IMG/VR virus record: IMGVR_UViG_3300029783_000068
Span: 1-6,712 of that record
Length of the DNA: 6,712 nucleotides
Direction: 5' to 3' (one strand)
Source: a virus
The notes beneath the pieces were generated by a model. It was not told where the DNA came from, ran no database searches, and saw nothing but the letters and a program-made list of their open reading frames with translations. A program made the position numbers and the translations under genes. The number at the start of each line of letters is the position of its first letter. The stretch's first letter is position 1. This document shows positions 1 through 6,712 of the stretch, piece by piece.

Positions 1-497
1 AGCAACAGATGCAGCTTTATTCGTATTCCGCTAATTTGTTTTCTCAGTATGCGCAAGGTTTGTTGTCTTTGGCTACCATTAAGAATCGATTGGCAGAATA
101 TAGTGAATCTATTGCCCGTACCCGAGGTTTAAATATTTCTAACGAGCAGTCCGAGAAGCTTTCTGAATACTTTATTCGTGCGATGAAAGAGGAATATCAG
201 TCTAATGCTGCTTATTATCGTTCATACAAATCTATTGCCGGTGCTGTTGCTACTAGTCGTGGTAATATGGATATTTATGAATCTCAGCTTTCCCGCCTTC
301 AGAGAGATATGCAGGAATTGTTTGCAAAGCGTGAAGGCCATTCCTTGATGAATCGCAAGGCTTATTTTCGTGCGCAGCAGATTTGGCGTGATTTTATTGG
401 TGGTATTATGTCTGGTGCTGCTGCCGGTACTGGTGTTGGTGCCATGTCTAATTATCCTCGCGCCTCGCATAAGACGGTTAAAGGTTTTAGTCGTTAA
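1..497 (+). CDS. VP2: minor capsid / DNA pilot protein (VP2/H-like), C-terminal part; continuation of CDS 5860..6712 across the circular junction (complete codons begin at 3; stop TAA 495-497; whole protein ~416 aa)
   Basis: The frame opened at ATG 5860 runs through 6712 and continues in phase at window start, since 1-99 are identical to 6614-6712. The N-terminal region contains the Microviridae VP2-like segment NAEQAAINREWQTSERDAQNQWNLDQWNRENEYNSPAAQRARLEEAGYNPYM. T-rich third codon positions. Confidence 0.8.
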   Translation, partial: QQMQLYSYSANLFSQYAQGLLSLATIKNRLAEYSESIARTRGLNISNEQSEKLSEYFIRAMKEEYQSNAAYYRSYKSIAGAVATSRGNMDIYESQLSRLQRDMQELFAKREGHSLMNRKAYFRAQQIWRDFIGGIMSGAAAGTGVGAMSNYPRASHKTVKGFSR

Positions 498-501
498 TTA
501 C

Positions 502-524
502 TCCTCCGGTTTACAACCGGAGGA
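502..524 (+). other. perfect 10-bp inverted repeat hairpin TCCTCCGGTT-tac-AACCGGAGGA, 5 nt after the VP2 stop; possible terminator or ssDNA structural element
   Basis: Read directly: 502-511 is the reverse complement of 515-524. No T-tract follows immediately (TTTTT only at 541-545). Confidence 0.5.
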
Positions 525-568
525 ATCTACTCGATTAACATTTTTATATGTTATTTAACATTATATTC

Positions 569-599
569 TTTGGAATTGCATAATAAAATGCTATCTTTG
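569..599 (+). promoter_or_regulatory. candidate Bacteroidetes-type sigma-A promoter: -33 TTTG (569-572), 19-nt spacer, -7 TAtcTTTG (592-599), about 24 nt upstream of ATG 623
   Basis: Exact match to the TTTG...TAnnTTTG consensus, as I recall it for Bacteroides promoters, with canonical spacing. The surrounding DNA is AT-rich, so a chance match is possible. Confidence 0.4.
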
Positions 600-622
600 T
601 AATGTAATCAAAAACAAAGGAT

Positions 623-898
623 ATGAAAACAAACAAATTATTTCGGGTTAATTTTGAGAAAGCTAATGCTATTTATTCAGTTTTTAAAACTTGTAATGTT
701 TTTACAATATTGTTGGATGGCACTTTGCTTCCTGTCTATGATTTTAGTGGTAATAACTTTCGTTCGTCTTTGAATAGTCTTCGCAAGTATTATCCTGACT
801 CTGTAGTTAGGTATCATTTTGAGTCTTCTTTTTATGATCAGAATACTTTACCTACTCCTTTTCATTTAACTTATTCTGATTGTATTCTGTTCTTTTAG
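623..898 (+). CDS. hypothetical protein, 91 aa
   Basis: ORF with strong T bias at third codon positions like the confirmed genes. Same strand as all other genes. Preceded by AAAGGA and the candidate promoter, followed by a GC hairpin. No recognisable motif. Confidence 0.45.
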   Translation: MKTNKLFRVNFEKANAIYSVFKTCNVFTILLDGTLLPVYDFSGNNFRSSLNSLRKYYPDSVVRYHFESSFYDQNTLPTPFHLTYSDCILFF

Positions 899-915
899 GG
901 CTGTTTTTACAGCCC
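898..915 (+). terminator. GC-rich hairpin GGGCTGT-tttt-ACAGCCC (7-bp stem) overlapping the stop of ORF 623-898, followed by TTTAA; weak terminator-like structure
   Basis: 898-904 is the reverse complement of 909-915. Only 3 T follow, so not a canonical intrinsic terminator. Confidence 0.3.
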
Positions 916-957
916 TTTAACACTGTCCGTAGGACACCATTAACGCAGTGAGAGCGC

Positions 958-970
958 CGGACGAAGTCCG
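958..970 (+). other. mini-hairpin CGGAC-GAA-GTCCG (5-bp stem, C-GAA-G triloop)
   Basis: 958-962 is the reverse complement of 966-970. Confidence 0.55.
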
Positions 971-983
971 TGTCGCGGAATCG

Positions 984-994
984 CGTAAACATCC
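984..994 (+). repeat. 11-nt direct repeat CGTAAACATCC, copy 1 (copy 2 at 1083-1093, 99 nt away); both copies lie just 3' of a GAA-triloop hairpin beginning ACGAAGT
   Basis: Exact 11/11 identity read from the sequence. Chance expectation in a 460-nt region is about 0.03. Confidence 0.6.
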
Positions 995-1066
995 TAGCGC
1001 CCTTGAGAATAGTTCCTACTCTTGCGGCGCTCTTTCCCTTGCTTTGTGTTAACCACGTCTCACGCC

Positions 1067-1081
1067 GTCAACGAAGTTGAC
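1067..1081 (+). other. mini-hairpin GTCAAC-GAA-GTTGAC (6-bp stem, C-GAA-G triloop)
   Basis: 1067-1072 is the reverse complement of 1076-1081. Confidence 0.55.
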
Positions 1082-1082
1082 C

Positions 1083-1093
1083 CGTAAACATCC
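1083..1093 (+). repeat. 11-nt direct repeat CGTAAACATCC, copy 2
   Basis: Identical to 984-994. Confidence 0.6.
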
Positions 1094-1128
1094 ATTACGT
1101 CATGTTCAGTCACGTTAGGTTTCGTGTA

Positions 1129-1146
1129 GGGCGCGATGCTGCGCCC
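1129..1146 (+). other. hairpin GGGCGC-gatgct-GCGCCC (6-bp all-GC stem)
   Basis: 1129-1134 is the reverse complement of 1141-1146. Confidence 0.5.
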
Positions 1147-1151
1147 GGAAC

Positions 1152-1164
1152 AGACCGAAGGTCT
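1152..1164 (+). other. mini-hairpin AGACC-GAA-GGTCT (5-bp stem, C-GAA-G triloop)
   Basis: 1152-1156 is the reverse complement of 1160-1164. Confidence 0.55.
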
Positions 1165-1176
1165 ACAAGCGGAGCG

Positions 1177-1191
1177 CCGACCACAGGTCGG
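1177..1191 (+). other. hairpin CCGACC-aca-GGTCGG (6-bp stem, 3-nt loop)
   Basis: 1177-1182 is the reverse complement of 1186-1191. Confidence 0.5.
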
Positions 1192-1226
1192 ATAACAAAA
1201 AACAAAAGGAATAAGAAAGGAATTTA

Positions 1227-1242
1227 GGCTTCCTTAGAAGCC
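1227..1242 (+). other. hairpin GGCTTC-ctta-GAAGCC (6-bp stem), downstream of the purine-rich tandem AAAGGAAT x2 (1205-1223)
   Basis: 1227-1232 is the reverse complement of 1237-1242. Confidence 0.45.
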
Positions 1243-1299
1243 GTTAAGAATTTCTTTATTGTTCCGGTCCGAAGGATTTGTTGTCCTTTAAACGTTGTT

Positions 1300-1308
1300 T
1301 GGCGAAGC
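1300..1308 (+). other. canonical d(GCGAAGC)-type mini-hairpin, GGC-GAA-GCC
   Basis: The sequence GGCGAAGCC contains the GCGAAGC heptamer, known to form an extraordinarily stable DNA mini-hairpin. Confidence 0.5.
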
Positions 1309-1353
1309 CGCGTACATGGAGAATTTAGCGTAGCCTACACTTTTGCCCGAAGG

Positions 1354-1378
1354 GAATCGATGTCACCTTCATCGATTC
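1354..1378 (+). other. 9-bp stem / 7-nt loop hairpin GAATCGATG-tcacctt-CATCGATTC at the boundary between the GC-rich hairpin region and the AT-rich tract 1380-1547; candidate origin-type stem-loop
   Basis: 1354-1362 is the reverse complement of 1370-1378. Each arm contains a palindromic ATCGAT. Confidence 0.45.
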
Positions 1379-1379
1379 A

Positions 1380-1547
1380 ACTCTCTCGTCCTTACTATGC
1401 AAAAGTGACACCTATCCTACTGAATTTGAAGAATTTATTAAATTTTATTTCCTATAGAAATTATCTATACATTTTTCTGTTCATTTATTTTGTATATTAC
1501 CTTTTAGTTTTTATTATTGCATTGTTATTCATCAAAATAATTGTACT
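1380..1547 (+). promoter_or_regulatory. AT-rich non-coding tract upstream of the small ORF and Rep operon; probable promoter and/or DNA-unwinding region (no exact consensus promoter located)
   Basis: Very AT-rich. The only ORF over it (1360-1566) is low-complexity and lacks the T3 codon bias. Near-matches to TAnnTTTG occur (e.g. around 1486-1492) but none is exact. Confidence 0.3.
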
Positions 1548-1742
1548 ATGTTATTCAAAGTCTTAAAACATGCTAAAAACAACGATCCTCAGCGTCCTGT
1601 TGAACCTGTTGTTTATGTTGTTGAGGAAGCTGAACTTCTTCATTTTCTTCATGAAAATTTAAAACCTAGTTCCGGAAACGTGCTTGTGTTCGATTCCTTC
1701 CCCGAAGAGAATCTTTACCTTTTGTCTAACGATAAGGATTAG
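1548..1742 (+). CDS. hypothetical small acidic protein, 64 aa
   Basis: T-rich third codon positions like the bona fide genes. Ends 10 nt before the Rep ATG, giving an operon-like arrangement. No motif recognised. Confidence 0.4.
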   Translation: MLFKVLKHAKNNDPQRPVEPVVYVVEEAELLHFLHENLKPSSGNVLVFDSFPEENLYLLSNDKD

Positions 1743-1752
1743 GTTTTACATC

Positions 1753-3354
1753 ATGGATACCGCAGAGTTCGTCAATAAGTTTTACACTGAATGTCAACAC
1801 AAACGTGAAGTTATTAACCCCTATACTGGTGATATTATTCTCGTTCCCTGTGGTGTCTGTGATGCTTGTAAGGTTTCTAAGTCTGTTCTTGCTGAAAATC
1901 GTATTTATGCTCAGAAGTCTGTTTCGAAACATTGCTATTTTGTTAGTCTCACTTATAAAAATGAGTTTGTCCCTTATTATGAAGTTGAGACTCAGGAGAT
2001 CGATGAAGATAATATTGCTGTTCATGCTTTTGTTCGTCCTCGTCGTAGGCTTACTCGTACTTTCACTTTTCATGGTATTAAGCACGTTCGGCCTGTTCTC
2101 GGTTTAGCGATGGATCAGCAGTTTGACTTTGATTTTTCTTGTAAGAAAGAATATTGGAATCGTTATGCTCTCCAGGCAGATTTGTCTTTTAAAGGAAAGT
2201 ACCCTCAGTATGCCGGTCGTTATGGTTTTCTTTGTCATAAGGACTTGTCTTTATTTATGAAACGTGTACGTAAGCAGATCTTGCTTCGTGATTTAAATCC
2301 TGACCATGAAAAATTACATACATACATTGTGGGAGAGTACGGACCCGTCTCTTTCCGCCCGCATTTCCATATCTTATTTTTCTTTGACTCCGACAAACTC
2401 GCCAAGAATTTTATCCGAGTTGTTAATTCATGCTGGAAATTTGGACGTGTCGATTGCTCTACGTCCAGAGGAAAGGCTGAGTCGTACGTTGCGGGATATC
2501 TTAATAGCTTTACATCTCTTCCCCTACATTTCAAAGAAAATCGCTGCATTCGTCCTTTTGCACGATTCTCTAACCGCTTTGGATTTCAGTTCTTTTCATC
2601 TTCCATTGAAGAAAGTAGGAAAGGAGACTTTTCTAAACTCCTTGATGGAATCAGCGTGCCGGTCAATGGCAAGTATAGAGTTATTCGGCCATGGAGCTCG
2701 ATTATCGATACCTGCTTTTTTCGACCCGTCGCACATAGCCGTCGTACTGTATCTGAATATGTTGAGATATTACGACTTGCTCGGAATATCTGCCAGCGGC
2801 CAGCCTACTGGAAATCATCCATCTTCCAGATACCCAGGCTAATTTATTGGCATTACTACTCGTCTGACCGACAAAGCCAGACAGTGAAAGAGTTGTCTGA
2901 AGATTCTGTCATGACTGATATTATGCAGTTTCTTCATATCGATCCTACCCGAGGCGCTCTTGGTGATGAGTTTTTTGAGCGTTCTTTTTGTAGCCGTTTT
3001 TATATATTTTTTCGGCATTGTGAGAGTTTTCTGTCTTCGATGGGATTCTCCCTTTTCTCTCCGCGAGTAGATTATAATAGGATCCATTCCGCGATTAAGT
3101 TATCTAAAGAGTTTTTTGATGTCAGAGAAAAACAAAGCCTCCAAAATCTTTTTTCAGATTCTCAGTCTTTTGAAAGCGATTGGTCGGATATTTTTTGGAA
3201 TCAAACCGAAGAAAGACAAAGAGAATTTGCAGAGTCCGGATTAGGCTCTATGTGTCGTTCCAAACTTTCTGCTCTTGTACATTCGAAGGTGAAGCATCGG
3301 CACTTGAATGATATGAATAATTTTTTCACGGAGAGAGCTAATTATAATGTCTAG
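1753..3354 (+). CDS. VP4: rolling-circle replication initiation protein (Microviridae VP4 / gpA-like, HUH endonuclease superfamily), 533 aa from ATG 1753 (ORF opens at 1684)
   Basis: Motif I FVSLTY is at 1939-1956 and motif II HFHILFF (HUH) at 2362-2382. Motif III, with two catalytic tyrosines, reads YVAGY at 2485-2499, compared with phiX174 gpA YVAKY. There is an N-terminal Cys cluster C-x18-C-x2-C-x2-C. The conserved-looking N-terminus starts at MDTAEF. Confidence 0.9.
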   Translation: MDTAEFVNKFYTECQHKREVINPYTGDIILVPCGVCDACKVSKSVLAENRIYAQKSVSKHCYFVSLTYKNEFVPYYEVETQEIDEDNIAVHAFVRPRRRLTRTFTFHGIKHVRPVLGLAMDQQFDFDFSCKKEYWNRYALQADLSFKGKYPQYAGRYGFLCHKDLSLFMKRVRKQILLRDLNPDHEKLHTYIVGEYGPVSFRPHFHILFFFDSDKLAKNFIRVVNSCWKFGRVDCSTSRGKAESYVAGYLNSFTSLPLHFKENRCIRPFARFSNRFGFQFFSSSIEESRKGDFSKLLDGISVPVNGKYRVIRPWSSIIDTCFFRPVAHSRRTVSEYVEILRLARNICQRPAYWKSSIFQIPRLIYWHYYSSDRQSQTVKELSEDSVMTDIMQFLHIDPTRGALGDEFFERSFCSRFYIFFRHCESFLSSMGFSLFSPRVDYNRIHSAIKLSKEFFDVREKQSLQNLFSDSQSFESDWSDIFWNQTEERQREFAESGLGSMCRSKLSALVHSKVKHRHLNDMNNFFTERANYNV

Positions 3355-3568
3355 TCGTCGTCCTTACAAGGCGTATTTGTATCAGTCTTCCAATATGCTG
3401 GAAGATAATCAGTTTTATCTCGTGACTGAGATTTATTTGAATGCTCGGTCTTTCGTGGAATTTTCTCATAAGGTTTCAAAACTGAATCAGATCCTTTCGG
3501 ATTCTCATTATGCAGAATCTTTTTATTCTGTTGTTAACCTTGGCGATATTTATTATCGCGAAATTTAA
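3347..3568 (+). CDS. hypothetical small protein, 73 aa, basic N-terminus (MSSRRPYKAY); its start overlaps the Rep stop (ATGTCTAG)
   Basis: T-rich third codon positions. An 8-nt overlap with the rep stop suggests translational coupling. Sits between rep and VP1. A DNA-binding (J/VP8-like) role is speculative. Confidence 0.45.
   Translation: MSSRRPYKAYLYQSSNMLEDNQFYLVTEIYLNARSFVEFSHKVSKLNQILSDSHYAESFYSVVNLGDIYYREI
3543..3559 (+). other. hairpin GCGATA-tttat-TATCGC 14 nt upstream of the VP1 start codon
   Basis: 3543-3548 is the reverse complement of 3554-3559. Could modulate VP1 translation or be incidental. Confidence 0.3.
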
Positions 3569-3572
3569 TTTT

Positions 3573-5438
3573 ATGGCTTCAAACTTATTTTCTTTTGGAG
3601 ATGTTCGGAATCACCCTCACAGGTCCGGTTTCGATCTTTCTCGTCGTATCTGTTTCACCAGCAAGGCTGGTGAACTTTTGCCAGTTTATTATAAACTGGT
3701 TTATCCAGGTGACAAATTTCAGATTCGTCATCAGTTGTTTACTCGTACTCAACCCGTTAATACAGCTGCGTATACTCGTATCCGTGAATATTTGGACTGG
3801 TATTTTGTTCCGTTGCGTTTGATTAATAAGAACCTTCCTCAGGCTCTTATGAATATGCAGGATAATCCGGTTCAGGCATCAGGCATTAACGCTAATAAGA
3901 TTATTACAAATGATATTCCTTATTTTGTTCTTTCTGGTTCTACTGTGTCCCTTGCTGATCTTTTAACAATTATGTATGGTTCTAAAAAGGACGGATCTGC
4001 TGCTGTTTTGAATTTTTTTGGTTTTAATACTGCCTCTCTTTCTGCAAAGTTACTTATGATGCTTCGTTATGGTAATTTTGTTAGTGATATTGTAGATGCT
4101 AATCTTTATGGAAATTCTTTTGGATTGAGTTCTGATCCTAATTTTTCTTTGCGTGCTTATAATAGTAGTTATGCTTTAAACATTTTGCCTCTTGCGGCTT
4201 ATCAGAAGATTTATGCAGATCATTTTAGGTTTTCTCAATGGGAGAAGAATGAGCCTTATACGTACAATTTTGATTGGTATTCAGGTGGTAATGTTTTTGC
4301 TTCTATTGGGCTTAATCAAGTTCGTGAGTATATCGAGAAAAATAATCTTTTAACTCTTCGTTATGCTAATTGGCCGAAAGACCTTTTTATGGGTGTTATG
4401 CCTAATTCCCAGTTAGGTGATGTTTCTGTTGTGGATATTTTACCTACATCCTCTGCTTCGCCTAATCTCATTGGTGATGTTGTTGGTGTTACTGTTGACA
4501 ATGTCAATGCTACCGGATTGATAGCCATGAATGGTACTACTGAGCCCGGAGTGTTTAATATGAGGCCTGCTCGTACGCCTCAGACTGATGCTGTTTTGAG
4601 AGCTGTTATTTCTAATCCTTCTCTTCAGGCTTCTTTTTCTGTTCTTCAGCTTCGTATGGCTGAAGCTGTTCAGCGTTACCGCGAAGTTTCTCAGGTTGCT
4701 GATCAGACTGCCCGCGATCAGATTTATGCGCATTTTGGTGTAAGTTTGTCTCCTGCTTTGTCTGATACTTGTTTCCGCATTGGAGGTTCTGCTTCTAATA
4801 TCGATATTTCTGAGGTAGTCAATACTTTTTTGGGTCCTGATACAGAAACTGAAGCTAATATTAAAGGTAAAGGTGTTGGTACTGGTCAAGGTGGAACTTC
4901 TTTTTCTTCTGACGAATATGGTATTTTGATGGCTATTTATCATATTGTTCCTCTTTTGGATTATGTGATTACTGGTCAGCCTCAGGATCTTTTGTACACT
5001 AATACTGCTGATCTTCCTTTTCCGGAGTTTGATAGTATTGGCATGCAGTCACTTCATTTTGGTCGGTTTTTTAATTACAAGACCGCTGCATTTACCTCTG
5101 ATCCTACAGGTTCGGTTATGGGTTATACTCCGCGTTTTATCGATTTAAAGACTGACTATGATGAGGTATACGGAGCTTTCCGTTCTACTTTAAAATCTTG
5201 GGTTGCTCCGCTTGATCCTACGTATCTTTCTAAATGGGTATCTTCTACCATTCTCCCTGGTGAATCTACTCCTGTTTATTCGTTGAATTATGGTTTCTTT
5301 AAAGTGAATCCGTCTGTTTTGGATAGTATTTTTAGACTTAAGGCTGATAGTTCGATGGATACTGATCAGTTCTTGAGTTCTCTTTATCTGGATGTCAAGG
5401 CTGTCCGGAATTTCGACTATGATGGTATGCCTTATTAA
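3573..5438 (+). CDS. VP1: major capsid protein (Microviridae VP1 / F-like), 621 aa from ATG 3573 (ORF opens at 3510)
   Basis: N-terminus MASNLFSFGDVRNHPHRSGFDLS...LPGDKF...REYLDWYFVPLRL matches the conserved Microviridae VP1 N-terminal jelly-roll region. Size is typical. Strong T3 codon bias. Stop TAA at 5436-5438. Confidence 0.92.
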   Translation: MASNLFSFGDVRNHPHRSGFDLSRRICFTSKAGELLPVYYKLVYPGDKFQIRHQLFTRTQPVNTAAYTRIREYLDWYFVPLRLINKNLPQALMNMQDNPVQASGINANKIITNDIPYFVLSGSTVSLADLLTIMYGSKKDGSAAVLNFFGFNTASLSAKLLMMLRYGNFVSDIVDANLYGNSFGLSSDPNFSLRAYNSSYALNILPLAAYQKIYADHFRFSQWEKNEPYTYNFDWYSGGNVFASIGLNQVREYIEKNNLLTLRYANWPKDLFMGVMPNSQLGDVSVVDILPTSSASPNLIGDVVGVTVDNVNATGLIAMNGTTEPGVFNMRPARTPQTDAVLRAVISNPSLQASFSVLQLRMAEAVQRYREVSQVADQTARDQIYAHFGVSLSPALSDTCFRIGGSASNIDISEVVNTFLGPDTETEANIKGKGVGTGQGGTSFSSDEYGILMAIYHIVPLLDYVITGQPQDLLYTNTADLPFPEFDSIGMQSLHFGRFFNYKTAAFTSDPTGSVMGYTPRFIDLKTDYDEVYGAFRSTLKSWVAPLDPTYLSKWVSSTILPGESTPVYSLNYGFFKVNPSVLDSIFRLKADSSMDTDQFLSSLYLDVKAVRNFDYDGMPY

Positions 5439-5449
5439 ATGTGTTTGTT

Positions 5450-5860
5450 ATGAGTAAAAGTGAAACTTTTGTTATTTCTGGAATGTCTTCAGCTATTGCT
5501 GTTGTTGTTCAACCTATAGAGTCTCTTCGGTTTTATACTGATGAAGATGGTTGTGTTCACATGAATTCTGACGTCAATTTGCTTATGAATGCTGAGCGCA
5601 TTCGCAATCAGATTGGTGAAGAGAATTATTTGAATATTGTTCGTTCTATTCAGCCTTCTCGATCTCCTTATAAGCAAAAGTTGGATGATGATGCATTGAT
5701 TTCTACTTTGAAGTCTCGTTATCTTCAGTCTCCTGCCGAAGTTGATGCTTGGATGGCTGGTCTTGATCAGAAGTATGAGGATATGGTTGCTGAGGTTAAA
5801 GCGGCTGCTATTGCTTCTCAGGTTCCTGATGATTCTCAACCTGTTCAGTCTACTGAATAA
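5450..5860 (+). CDS. putative internal scaffolding protein (VP3-like), 136 aa from ATG 5450 (alternative GTG 5441), acidic
   Basis: Lies between VP1 and VP2 as in gokushoviruses. Size is about that of VP3, with an acidic C-terminal half. Its stop overlaps the VP2 start (TAATG). The functional assignment rests on position and size only. Confidence 0.55.
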   Translation: MSKSETFVISGMSSAIAVVVQPIESLRFYTDEDGCVHMNSDVNLLMNAERIRNQIGEENYLNIVRSIQPSRSPYKQKLDDDALISTLKSRYLQSPAEVDAWMAGLDQKYEDMVAEVKAAAIASQVPDDSQPVQSTE

Positions 5861-6712
5861 TGGGCCCGCTTGTTGGTGCCGCACTTATTAAAGGTGGTTC
5901 CGGACTTCTTGGTTCTGTTTTTAATGGCAGCATGAATAAGCGTGCTGCCAAGGCTTATAACAAAGGTCAGAAGGAGATTGCCCAGATGAACAATCAATGG
6001 AATGCCGAACAGGCAGCCATTAATCGTGAGTGGCAGACCTCTGAACGTGATGCTCAGAACCAGTGGAATTTGGATCAGTGGAATCGTGAAAACGAATATA
6101 ATTCTCCGGCCGCGCAGCGTGCCCGCCTTGAAGAGGCCGGATATAATCCTTACATGAATGGACTTGATGGTAATACAGCAGGTACTGGTGTTACTTCTGC
6201 CGGTGTTTCCGGTGTAGGTAATCCTACCGCCGAAATGCCTAATCAGGTTCCTGCTGCTTTCAATATGGATTTCAGTTCTATTGGCGATGCTATTAATTCT
6301 TACTATCAGAATCAGCTTTTAGCTAATCAGGCTAAAGGACAGGATATTCAAAATACTTTTGATCTTCAGTTCGGCAGTGATTTTCGCAAAGCTCAGATAG
6401 CAAGTTTGATTGATGGTCGTTATGAGTTCTTGAACCCTTCTTACAGAAATCTTCGTGATCTTTATGCGCCTCAGCAGGCTGTTACGGATTTAAGTAAGTC
6501 CCGTCAGGAACTTGCAGGTCTTCGTACCCAGACTCAGCTTACAGCTGCTCAGGCTTTTCTTACTGGTTTACAAGGTAAAGCACAGGAGATTATGAATAAG
6601 TATTTGCCTGCTCAGCAACAGATGCAGCTTTATTCGTATTCCGCTAATTTGTTTTCTCAGTATGCGCAAGGTTTGTTGTCTTTGGCTACCATTAAGAATC
6701 GATTGGCAGAAT
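5860..6712 (+). CDS. VP2: minor capsid / DNA pilot protein (VP2/H-like), N-terminal part; truncated by the window end and continues at 1..497
   Basis: ATG 5860 overlaps the TAA of the upstream gene. The product begins with a Gly-rich N-terminus MGPLVGAALIKGGSGLLGSVFNG, followed by the Microviridae VP2 motif region ...AQRARLEEAGYNPYM. The ORF track shows no stop because the frame is open to the window end. Confidence 0.85.
   Translation, partial: MGPLVGAALIKGGSGLLGSVFNGSMNKRAAKAYNKGQKEIAQMNNQWNAEQAAINREWQTSERDAQNQWNLDQWNRENEYNSPAAQRARLEEAGYNPYMNGLDGNTAGTGVTSAGVSGVGNPTAEMPNQVPAAFNMDFSSIGDAINSYYQNQLLANQAKGQDIQNTFDLQFGSDFRKAQIASLIDGRYEFLNPSYRNLRDLYAPQQAVTDLSKSRQELAGLRTQTQLTAAQAFLTGLQGKAQEIMNKYLPAQQQMQLYSYSANLFSQYAQGLLSLATIKNRLAE
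6614..6712. repeat. 99-nt terminal redundancy of the window (identical to 1-99), reflecting a circular 6613-nt genome
   Basis: Exact 99/99 identity. The VP2 frame is continuous across the junction. Confidence 0.95.

Follow-up and report, generated by a model that had tools for sequence, protein, structure and literature searches.

A conserved, modular hairpin region of a gut microvirus genome as a candidate complementary-strand origin

We analyzed a stretch of 6,712 nucleotides (nt) of viral DNA (IMG/VR record IMGVR_UViG_3300029783_000068, positions 1 to 6,712; hereafter the window), which contains a complete circular microvirus genome, and focused on the hairpin-rich non-coding region that starts at position 899. 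This region is conserved in structure, folds on the gene-sense (+) strand with loops of the DNA type, lies between a terminator and a promoter, and is modular. It consists of an intrinsic terminator, a group of covarying hairpins (block A), a dispensable insert, and a core (block B). From its sequence, we take it to be a cis-acting DNA element working in the single-stranded virion (+) form, most likely a complementary-strand origin, although our confidence in this assignment is no better than even.

The Conserved Core and the Folding Strand

Block B (positions 1330–1411 of the window; all features given here lie on the + strand) is a three-helix core that extends 33 nt past the end coordinate given in the initial annotation, which had flagged 899–1378. 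It is composed of the 5′ arm of a long-range stem, P1 (CACTTTTG, 1338–1345), a mini-hairpin a (CCC-GAA-GGG, 1346–1354), a hairpin b (AATCGATG..CATCGATT, 1355–1377), a single-stranded segment J (CAACTCTCTCGTCCTTACTATG, 1378–1399), and the P1 3′ arm (CAAAAGTG, 1400–1407), which is followed by ACAC. A covariance model of this arrangement (R1), consisting of the 8 base pairs (bp) of P1 (CACTTTTG/CAAAAGTG), the 3-bp hairpin a and the 8-bp hairpin b, detects block B exactly once, and in the gene-sense orientation, in each of the related genomes searched, its matches including at least 20 genomes with a replication protein (Rep) only 27–40% identical, as well as partial contigs. In the distant relatives, the non-coding gap comprises only block B with a terminator before it and a short palindrome and a TAnnTTTG promoter after it. 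Because this gap contains neither block A nor the insert, block B appears to be sufficient on its own, and the other two would be lineage-specific additions to it.

Both the structure and the primary sequence of block B are under selection. Across 49 distinct sequences, 96.8% of the cells pair, with compensatory changes in 9 of the 11 pairs of hairpins a and b, while none of 500 shuffles reach the observed value and slid controls are only 28–48% paired; these counts come from related sequences, in alignments partly fitted to the model. The fold of block B as DNA has a z-score of −5.4. In addition, GCAAAAGTGAC is invariant in the full-length + strand matches, with AC or AT as the next two bases, and the motif YCTCTYGTCC in segment J is kept in most clades. 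The P1 5′ arm retains only CTTTTG, its outer two pairs drifting to T·G, G·T or T·T. As the 3′ arm is invariant in the absence of compensatory changes, the primary sequence, and not the helix alone, must be selected. Finally, in all cases seen, the type of block B (GAA/CGATG vs GAAT/CAGG) goes with the Rep clade.

Taking the region as a whole, the initial annotation had described a GC-enriched block of hairpins without open reading frames (ORFs), and this description largely holds. All of the stems that it listed exist, either where they were placed or within 1–2 nt, namely GGGCTGT/ACAGCCC (898–915), CGGAC-GAA-GTCCG (958–970), GTCAAC-GAA-GTTGAC (1067–1081), GGGCGC/GCGCCC (1129–1146), AGACC-GAA-GGTCT (1152–1164), CCGACC-ACA-GGTCGG (1177–1191), AGGCTTC/GAAGCCT (1226–1243), GGC-GAA-GCC (1301–1309) and GAATCGATG/CATCGATTC (1354–1378). 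The GC content of 899–1378 is 0.494, compared to 0.395 for the whole genome. All six frames of 899–1411 hold 3–12 stop codons, with a longest open stretch of 61 codons, and we find no conserved coding frame in the alignment of the relatives, where insertions and deletions are mostly not multiples of three. The helices of the region covary in this alignment. The extent of the region needs correction, however: what had been called a non-coding block of about 7% of the genome is indeed non-coding, but the true gap runs from 899 to 1547, about 10% of the genome, and the structured part, while real, is not one block but four elements and ends at 1411. Neither is the hairpin at 898–915 part of the array, as had been assumed, but rather a terminator. 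A long-range pairing of 951–964 with 1020–1033 was considered and rejected as unconserved, since the relatives have GGCAC opposite GCGCC.

Folded as single-stranded DNA (ssDNA), positions 880–1400 reach −91.9 kcal mol–1, compared to −65.6 ± 4.8 kcal mol–1 for dinucleotide shuffles (n = 100, z −5.5), so the predicted stability does exceed that of shuffled controls. The corresponding z-scores are −4.55 for the same stretch as RNA and −4.7 for the minus strand as DNA. In a scan with 150-nt sliding segments, the lowest energies of the genome fall within the region, with z-scores of −3.8 to −4.8 in four segments; some segments of the region are not significant, and three other places in the genome reach z < −3. 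Fold energy alone is neither unique to this region nor able to separate the strands.

The loops are more informative. Hairpins with a GNA triloop closed by C-G number 7 in 899–1412 and 2 in the other 6.1 kb, while shuffles are expected to give 0.18 (maximum 3 in 2000), and no complementary cTNCg hairpin is present in 899–1412. Across 33 genomes, which are related so that their counts are not independent, there are 79 GNA hairpins in the 20 kb around block B and 69 in the 198 kb elsewhere, an 11-fold density, compared to 0 and 19 cTNCg hairpins, respectively. Mutated loops stay GNA or GNNA (GAA, GTA, GCA, GGA, GAAA, GATA, GGTA). Hairpin a of block B carries GAA, GGA, GCA, GTA, GAAA, GATA, GGTA or GAAT loops in the relatives, and is an exact GCGAAGC in many of them; in the window, the heptamer CCGAAGG occurs three times, and GCGAAGC (1302–1308) and GCGTAGC (1326–1332) once each. 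GNA triloops and GNNA loops closed by C-G are the only extraordinarily stable DNA mini-hairpins, according to Hirao et al. (PMC13037366), and such mini-hairpins are known from the priming sites of G4, St-1 and alpha3, from ssiA of RSF1010 (CCGAAGG) and from the promoters of the N4 virion RNA polymerase (vRNAP) (PMC13037366). Helix wobbles across the relatives are G·T in 46 cases and A·C in 6.

Every gene of the microvirus genome lies on the + strand, and in Microviridae the gene-sense strand is established as the packaged one; the + strand is therefore the packaged strand. The element itself follows an intrinsic terminator and precedes the promoter of the next operon. A search of Rfam 15 at E ≤ 10 gave, as the best match in the region, PrrB_RsmZ at 18.2 bits (E 0.7), compared to a gathering score of 44, and ARAGORN found no tRNA or tmRNA in the region. 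Together, the loops, the wobbles, the tandem G·A pairs described below, the Rfam result and the position between terminator and promoter favor the + DNA strand as the strand that folds, and the earlier proposal that the hairpins form in virion ssDNA agrees with both the loop chemistry and the wobble bias. We also considered folding of a minus-strand RNA with cUUCGg tetraloops (the reverse complement of CCGAAGG being CCTTCGG), but rejected it as the UUCG register is one base off the stems, and the outer C/G is also missing at 3 of the 6 CGAAG sites.

Accessory Hairpins, Cassette Exchange and Genomic Surroundings

Block A (921–1115) contains covarying helices and two copies of CGTAAACATCC. It opens with hairpin H1 (TGTCC-GTA-GGACA, 924–936), a cGNAg DNA mini-hairpin with a GTA, GCA or GAA loop among the relatives, always GNA, and with a covarying stem (TGCC/GGCA, GTGC/GCAC). 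Domain I (943–986) follows, with an outer stem ACGC (943–946)/GCGT (983–986) that becomes ACCG/CGGT in 7 of 17 sequences, an inner stem GCG/CGC (954–956/974–976) in which C:G is replaced by A:T in 5 sequences, and the apical hairpin CGGAC-GAA-GTCCG (958–970), the stem of which (H2) has two Watson–Crick pairs replaced by tandem G·A pairs in three relatives (CGAAC-GAA-GTGAG). The first copy of the direct repeat CGTAAACATCC (984–994) forms a partly single-stranded linker to domain II (998–1026), where a stem CGC (998–1000)/GCG (1024–1026) surrounds the hairpin GAG..CTC (1005–1021); this stem is a compensatory CAC/GTG in Dulem virus 265, and compensatory changes are seen at each of the three inner-helix pairs. 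Further downstream, the cGNAg hairpin H4 (GTCAAC-GAA-GTTGAC, 1067–1081) is 100% paired across 17 sequences, where A:T covaries to G:C and the loop is GAA or GGA, and hairpin H5 (1083–1099, stem CGTA/TACG around the loop AACATCCAT) displays the second CGTAAACATCC copy in its loop, is 97% paired, and has G:C changed to G:T in 4 sequences, which is tolerated on the + strand only. The two copies of CGTAAACATCC are exact and 99 nt apart, where 0.34 would be expected by chance, and the repeat is kept in all relatives that have block A. In our hand-built structure of eight helices, 95.4% of the cells pair, with compensatory changes in 11 of the 32 pairs, whereas slid controls are 24–44% paired and none of 500 shuffles reach the observed value. 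One relative, L037 (IMGVR_UViG_3300008081_000004; L-numbers are our labels for related genomes), carries a 99-nt tandem duplication in block A, with a third hairpin + GTAAACATCC unit and a third copy of CGTAAACATCC, which is natural evidence that this unit can be repeated.

The insert (1116–1329, 214 nt) holds the hairpins at 1129–1146, 1152–1164 and 1177–1191, a long A/T-rich hairpin at about 1205–1265 with its tip at 1226–1243, the mini-hairpins TCC-GAA-GGA (1268–1276) and GGC-GAA-GCC (1301–1309), and, running into block B, the heptamer GCGTAGC (1326–1332). Dulem virus 265/266, L026 and L036 lack it, L006 has only part of it, and bajarodmic virus 502 carries another insert in its place, so that it would appear to be dispensable.

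Comparison of the window with mosaic genomes, at the protein level for whole genes and at the nucleotide level segment by segment, suggests that block A and the insert move as a cassette among genomes whose Reps have diverged. In L012, L015, L018, L027 and L034, the product of ORF 623–898 (ORF623) is 95–97% identical to that of the window, compared to 48–49% for Rep, 34–39% for the pilot protein and 59–61% for the capsid protein. At the nucleotide level, identity to the window is about 45% at the 3′ end of the pilot gene, 84–93% in block A, 91–98% in the insert (L017 and L249), about 75% in block B, about 40% in the AT-rich spacer that follows it, and about 54% (53–55%) in the 5′ part of rep. 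L017 and L249, which carry the insert, are likewise 53% identical to the window in the 5′ part of rep (L017 Rep 48% at the protein level), and their ORF623 is 53% (L017) and 74% (L249) identical, despite a block A and insert that are 84–98% identical. Because the flanking ORF623 of L017 is only 53% identical, the exchanged unit would be the non-coding array itself. The breakpoints of the mosaics lie at about 498–620 and exactly at the junction of insert and block B (window 498–1329, compared with L012, L015, L017 and L249). We note, separately, that L038 (IMGVR_UViG_3300045988_022360, 12,801 nt) has two different block B types 6.76 kb apart and is two distinct microvirus genomes joined head to tail, probably by an assembly artifact through the shared block A cassette.

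Upstream, the terminator (898–920; stem GGGCTGT/ACAGCCC, loop TTTT, then TTTAA) overlaps the TAG stop codon (896–898) of ORF 623–898. The relatives keep this hairpin with other stem sequences, such as AGCCTGGT..ACCAGGCTTTTTT in bajarodmic viruses 502 and 273, and with a T run of up to six. In L142–L158 and L043–L045, both of which are Rep groups only about 30–40% identical to that of the window, the terminator hairpin after the pilot gene is conserved as GGCTCGTGATGAGTCGG, with G·T wobbles, just upstream of block B; it may be a second conserved non-coding element, and recalls the overlap of the phiX174 ori(−) with the T_F terminator. Downstream, the AT-rich spacer (1412–1547, 19% GC) lies outside the structured element and upstream of orf1548 and rep, and is probably a promoter region, judging from the perfect Bacteroidota-type −7 box (TATATTTG or TATCTTTG) that relatives have at this position, where the window has near matches only. 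We found no exact TAnnTTTG box inside the structured region, and the candidate CACTTTTG was rejected as a −7 box, as it is only a 5/6 match, degrading to CTCTTTTG in distant relatives. In L137–L158, a conserved palindrome, AATAAAAATGC...ATATGTTGTATAACATAT, with 7-bp arms lies 10–60 nt downstream of block B, ahead of the TAnnTTTG promoter (e.g., locus 2988–3010 of L142); it is absent from the window and might act as an operator or as a dif-like site for recombination.

The microvirus genome itself is 6613 nt long, positions 6614–6712 of the window duplicating 1–99, and encodes a pilot-like protein (5860 to 497), ORF 623–898, an orf at 1548–1742 upstream of rep, Rep (1753–3354), an orf at 3347–3568, the major capsid protein (3573–5438) and a scaffold-like protein (5450–5860), with neither a primase nor a polymerase gene. 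A perfect Bacteroidota-type −7 box, TATCTTTG, is found at 592–599, 24 nt upstream of the ORF623 start; on the basis of such boxes and because the relatives come from mammalian gut samples, the host is probably a member of the Bacteroidota. After the pilot gene (500–525) there is a GC-rich hairpin, CTCCTCCGGTT..AACCGGAGGA, an apparent terminator without a T run. The ORF623 homologue of Dulem virus 265 is annotated as a "replication initiator protein", for which PHROGs gives no support.

Our relatives comprise 6 genomes in GenBank, none of which is annotated in this region, and more than 40 from IMG/VR and metagenomes. A blastn search of the region against 50,697 phage records matched the 6 gut microviruses only. 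The concern that the region might be an assembly chimera can be set aside: it is a genuine, conserved part of the phage, present in at least 30 independent assemblies, with no plasmid or host-sized contig among the matches listed. Outside the clade, the shared motif TACAAGCGNAGCGCNGA has only chance matches in IMG/VR, and the 18-mer GGGCGCGATGCTGCGCCC occurs in its insert context only in microvirus contigs of 3–6.7 kb among the metagenome matches listed, which speaks against a host-derived or chimeric insert. A 16-mer scan of bacterial genomes gave only chance matches among the 80 listed, which does not prove absence from hosts.

Two further features lie outside the region. An ORF of 178 codons (2306–2842, +) in the +1 frame of rep is open for 179–209 codons (292 in L142) in every lineage checked, with Rep about 30% identical, and has a conserved start MKKY(I/L)HTL and the motifs ARISISYFSLT, VVSIRN and TLRDILIAL, while the third frame over rep is open for 12–44 codons only; it looks like an overprinted gene, as are B and K inside A of phiX174. 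Nucleotides 2353–2390 of rep, which encode the HUH motif, are almost invariant even at synonymous sites, and we considered a viral-strand origin hidden there, but this conservation is better explained by the overprinted ORF and is not used as evidence. In addition, the start of the capsid gene (3526–3750) is a second stretch that folds better than shuffles as DNA (z −4.2 and −4.3), with hairpins CACCAGC-AAG-GCTGGTG and CCAGTTTAT/ATAAACTGG, followed by nucleotide-level conservation at 3738–3801 in 20 distant genomes.

Proposed Function and Competing Explanations

As a complementary-strand origin, at which the ssDNA entering the cell would begin its conversion to the double-stranded replicative form, the element could work as follows. 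After ejection, the host single-stranded DNA-binding protein (SSB) would coat the circle but be excluded from the element, where the cGNAg mini-hairpins and the block B core would be too stable to melt and remain folded. Poor binding of SSB to GNA mini-hairpins has been described (PMC13037366). The resulting SSB-free island would then be recognized by a host enzyme, be it primase, RNA polymerase or a PriA-type loader, and a primer laid down on exposed single strand, with J in block B and the AACATCC loops displayed by block A as candidate sites, whereupon the host polymerase would copy the circle. Block B would be the ancestral sufficient core, and block A and the insert accessory mini-hairpin modules that are gained, lost, duplicated and swapped. 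Exchange of the array independently of Rep is what would be expected of a module read by host factors, by analogy with the interchangeable single-strand origin (sso) cassettes of rolling-circle plasmids.

A more specific version of this scheme, which we regard as rather improbable, is that block A and the insert form an autonomous origin cassette of mini-hairpins and AACATCC loops, passed horizontally between gut microviruses whatever their Rep, and that block B is an ssDNA promoter for the Bacteroidota RNA polymerase, in which the invariant P1 duplex CTTTTG/CAAAAG (CACTTTTG) would mimic the TTTG of TAnnTTTG and the unpaired J would provide a pre-opened template. The match of P1 to this box weakens in distant relatives. 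If true, this would be the first minus origin of the RNA-polymerase (M13/sso-like) type in Microviridae and the first origin defined for an ssDNA phage of the Bacteroidota.

Several observations count against assigning the element as a complementary-strand origin. The assignment is drawn entirely from sequence, and the strand is assigned from loops and wobbles only, as fold z-scores are equal on both strands. Distant relatives have neither block A nor the insert, and the insert is missing even from near-identical ones; most of the region flagged in the initial annotation thus cannot be essential, and the element of the distant relatives is the core alone. P1 shows no compensatory change, its 3′ arm being invariant while the 5′ arm drifts, and such selection on sequence would suit the phage Rep as the recognizing protein no less than a host enzyme. 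In our sample, the block B variants track the Rep clade. We found no block B in PLSDB plasmids, and none in the large phage contigs that share its degenerate pattern, so that there is no independent sign of a host factor that reads it. Finally, the nearest-neighbor model does not predict hairpin a in the window.

The main rival reading is that block B is, or contains, the viral-strand (double-strand) origin, with Rep binding the invariant GCAAAAGTGACAC and nicking J, for instance at CTCTYG|TCC, which would leave the upstream array as the minus-strand origin or as an accessory. The J motif YCTCTYGTCC, conserved between clades, is loosely similar to CTTG|ATA, the nick context of phiX174 and of pC194-type plasmids. 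The phiX174 nick falls at G4305/A4306 (bioRxiv 10.64898/2026.07.25.740675). This reading also gains from the invariant sequence and missing covariation of P1, from the co-segregation of block B type, but not of block A and the insert, with the Rep clade, and from the location of block B upstream of rep, as in the double-strand origins of rolling-circle plasmids; moreover, the window has no phiX-like ori(+) 18-mer, and no other candidate was found, the conserved stretch of rep being better explained by the overprinted ORF. We nevertheless consider it doubtful. The phiX174 ori(+) lies inside gene A and needs no hairpins, whereas here two strongly covarying hairpins and a DNA mini-hairpin are selected, features typical of signals for single-strand initiation; the putative nick site varies, CTCTCGTCC being replaced by CTTTTATCC or CTCTTAATCC in the X clade; a distance of roughly 340 nt would be enough to explain the linkage to Rep; and distant relatives would be left with no evident minus origin except the terminator hairpin.

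It is improbable that block A and the insert are instead a selfish or neutral hairpin cassette without a role in replication, whether resembling repetitive extragenic palindromic (REP) elements or miniature inverted-repeat transposable elements (MITE) or serving as capsid-filling stuffer. Their presence or absence among close relatives, the 99-nt duplication in L037, and near-identical copies in genomes about 45–55% identical at the nucleotide level in the 3′ end of the pilot gene and the 5′ part of rep would all suit such a cassette, as would the GTAG that precedes the palindrome at 1129–1146, which recalls REP elements. However, lineages with 45–50% Rep identity show compensatory changes in block A and have kept its GNA loops, which indicates selection on structure, position and orientation are constant, the cassette never occurs outside microvirus contigs among the matches listed, and the junctions show neither terminal repeats nor target duplications. 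Hardly better is the case for hairpins acting as RNA, produced by read-through from the ORF623 promoter, as an attenuator, a stabilizer, a 5′ leader of rep or a structured non-coding RNA. The RNA fold is also significant (z −4.55), the window lacks a perfect TAnnTTTG upstream of orf1548 and rep, and read-through of a weak terminator (3 T) is conceivable, phiX terminators being leaky. Nevertheless, there is no Rfam match (best 18 bits, E 0.7), the C-G-closed GNA triloops are a motif of DNA-specific stability whereas GNRA and UNCG tetraloops are absent, minus-strand cUUCGg is out of register with the stems, and the relatives have a canonical promoter downstream of block B and a strong terminator upstream. 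Least probable of all, and by our estimate very unlikely, is a structure for packaging, ejection or capsid contact of the ssDNA. The folding is specific to the packaged strand, as this would demand, but we see no sign of capsid contact, a fixed structural role would hardly be compatible with modules that come and go, and in the Microviridae studied, as established for phiX174, Rep-driven synthesis and packaging are coupled and no separate pac site is involved.

Comparison with Known Initiation Sites

A complementary-strand origin is to be expected in any microvirus. The element bears on how microviruses outside the phiX174/G4 group convert ssDNA to duplex. In the literature searched, we found no earlier description of it, nor any report that defines a plus- or minus-strand origin in the abundant gut clades. 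Predicted hairpins near Rep have been noted in two other small microvirus clades (PMC9865509). What would be new here is the clade-wide core, the family-wide, strand-specific mini-hairpin signal and the exchange of cassettes. The 90-nt core, found in every member of a broad gut clade, together with natural variants with and without accessory modules, offers a concrete element with candidate recognition sequences (GCAAAAGTGAC, YCTCTYGTCC and AACATCC), while recombination of origin modules as cassettes matters for both microvirus taxonomy and metagenome assembly.

Single-strand origins of rolling-circle plasmids (ssoA, ssoU, ssoT and ssoW) and the minus origin of M13/f1 are structured, orientation-specific modules of 150–300 nt read by the host RNA polymerase, and the plasmid modules are exchanged as cassettes between replicons with unrelated Reps. 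Exchange between divergent Reps is likewise seen for block A and the insert. On the other hand, no PLSDB plasmid carries block B, and the CS-6 sequence of ssoA, TAGCGT, occurs only in the window (1324–1329) and not in a terminal loop, the relatives having TAGTGA or TATGAA. The ssiA signal of RSF1010 contains a CCGAAGG mini-hairpin, as does the window, and N4 promoters use 5-bp stems with GAA or GGA triloops as ssDNA recognition elements (PMC13037366). However, ssiA/ssiB and the N4 hairpins are read by the plasmid- or phage-encoded RepB′ and vRNAP, whereas this microvirus has no primase or polymerase of its own.

The initial annotation had likened the region to the G4 oriC and the phiX174 n′ site, which is apt as far as a hairpin motif known from primase-dependent origins is concerned, but does not extend to sequence homology. 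The n′ (PriA) site is likewise a non-coding, intergenic hairpin, by or overlapping a terminator, that acts in ssDNA: in phiX174, ori(−) is intergenic and overlaps a terminator hairpin whereas ori(+) is inside gene A, the four non-coding regions total 217 nt, and PriA recognizes its site by structure (bioRxiv 10.64898/2026.07.25.740675). Here, by contrast, the invariant GCAAAAGTGAC argues for sequence-specific recognition. As for the phiX174 ori(+) (CAACTTG|ATATTAATAAC..., in the Rep gene), its first 18 nt have no match in the window at ≤3 mismatches, and no exact CTTGATA is present in the window.

The closest likeness is to the G4-type oric (G4, St-1, alpha3, phiK), where stable hairpins likewise cluster in a GC-rich intergenic region, on the virion strand of a microvirus genome. 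With filters off and E ≤ 10, R1 matches neither G4 nor phiX174, and the architecture differs, the G4 oric being 136 nt with three hairpins while here 200–400 nt of accessory hairpins accompany a three-helix core of 90 nt that includes a long-range stem; nor, with a host that is probably of the Bacteroidota and not Escherichia coli, can one take for granted the CTG rule known for E. coli DnaG. Subjected to the same analysis as a control, the G4 oric (136 nt, GC-rich, three hairpins) has a z-score of −4.7, similar to the −5.4 of block B, and carries GCGAAAGC in hairpin I. Its primer starts 3′ of hairpin I, and block B too has a single-stranded segment 3′ of its hairpins. The G4 primer start (CCCTACTGCAAAGCC, G4 3992–4003) also resembles the junction CCTTACTATGCAAAAGTG of block B (1393–1407), probably by chance, and we do not use this as evidence. 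The GCGNAGC/GCGNNAGC mini-hairpin motif of the G4-type oric, as defined in PMC13037366, is present here, strand-specific and conserved, and would extend the link between GNA mini-hairpins and initiation on ssDNA beyond a handful of E. coli examples to a strand-specific signal across the family.

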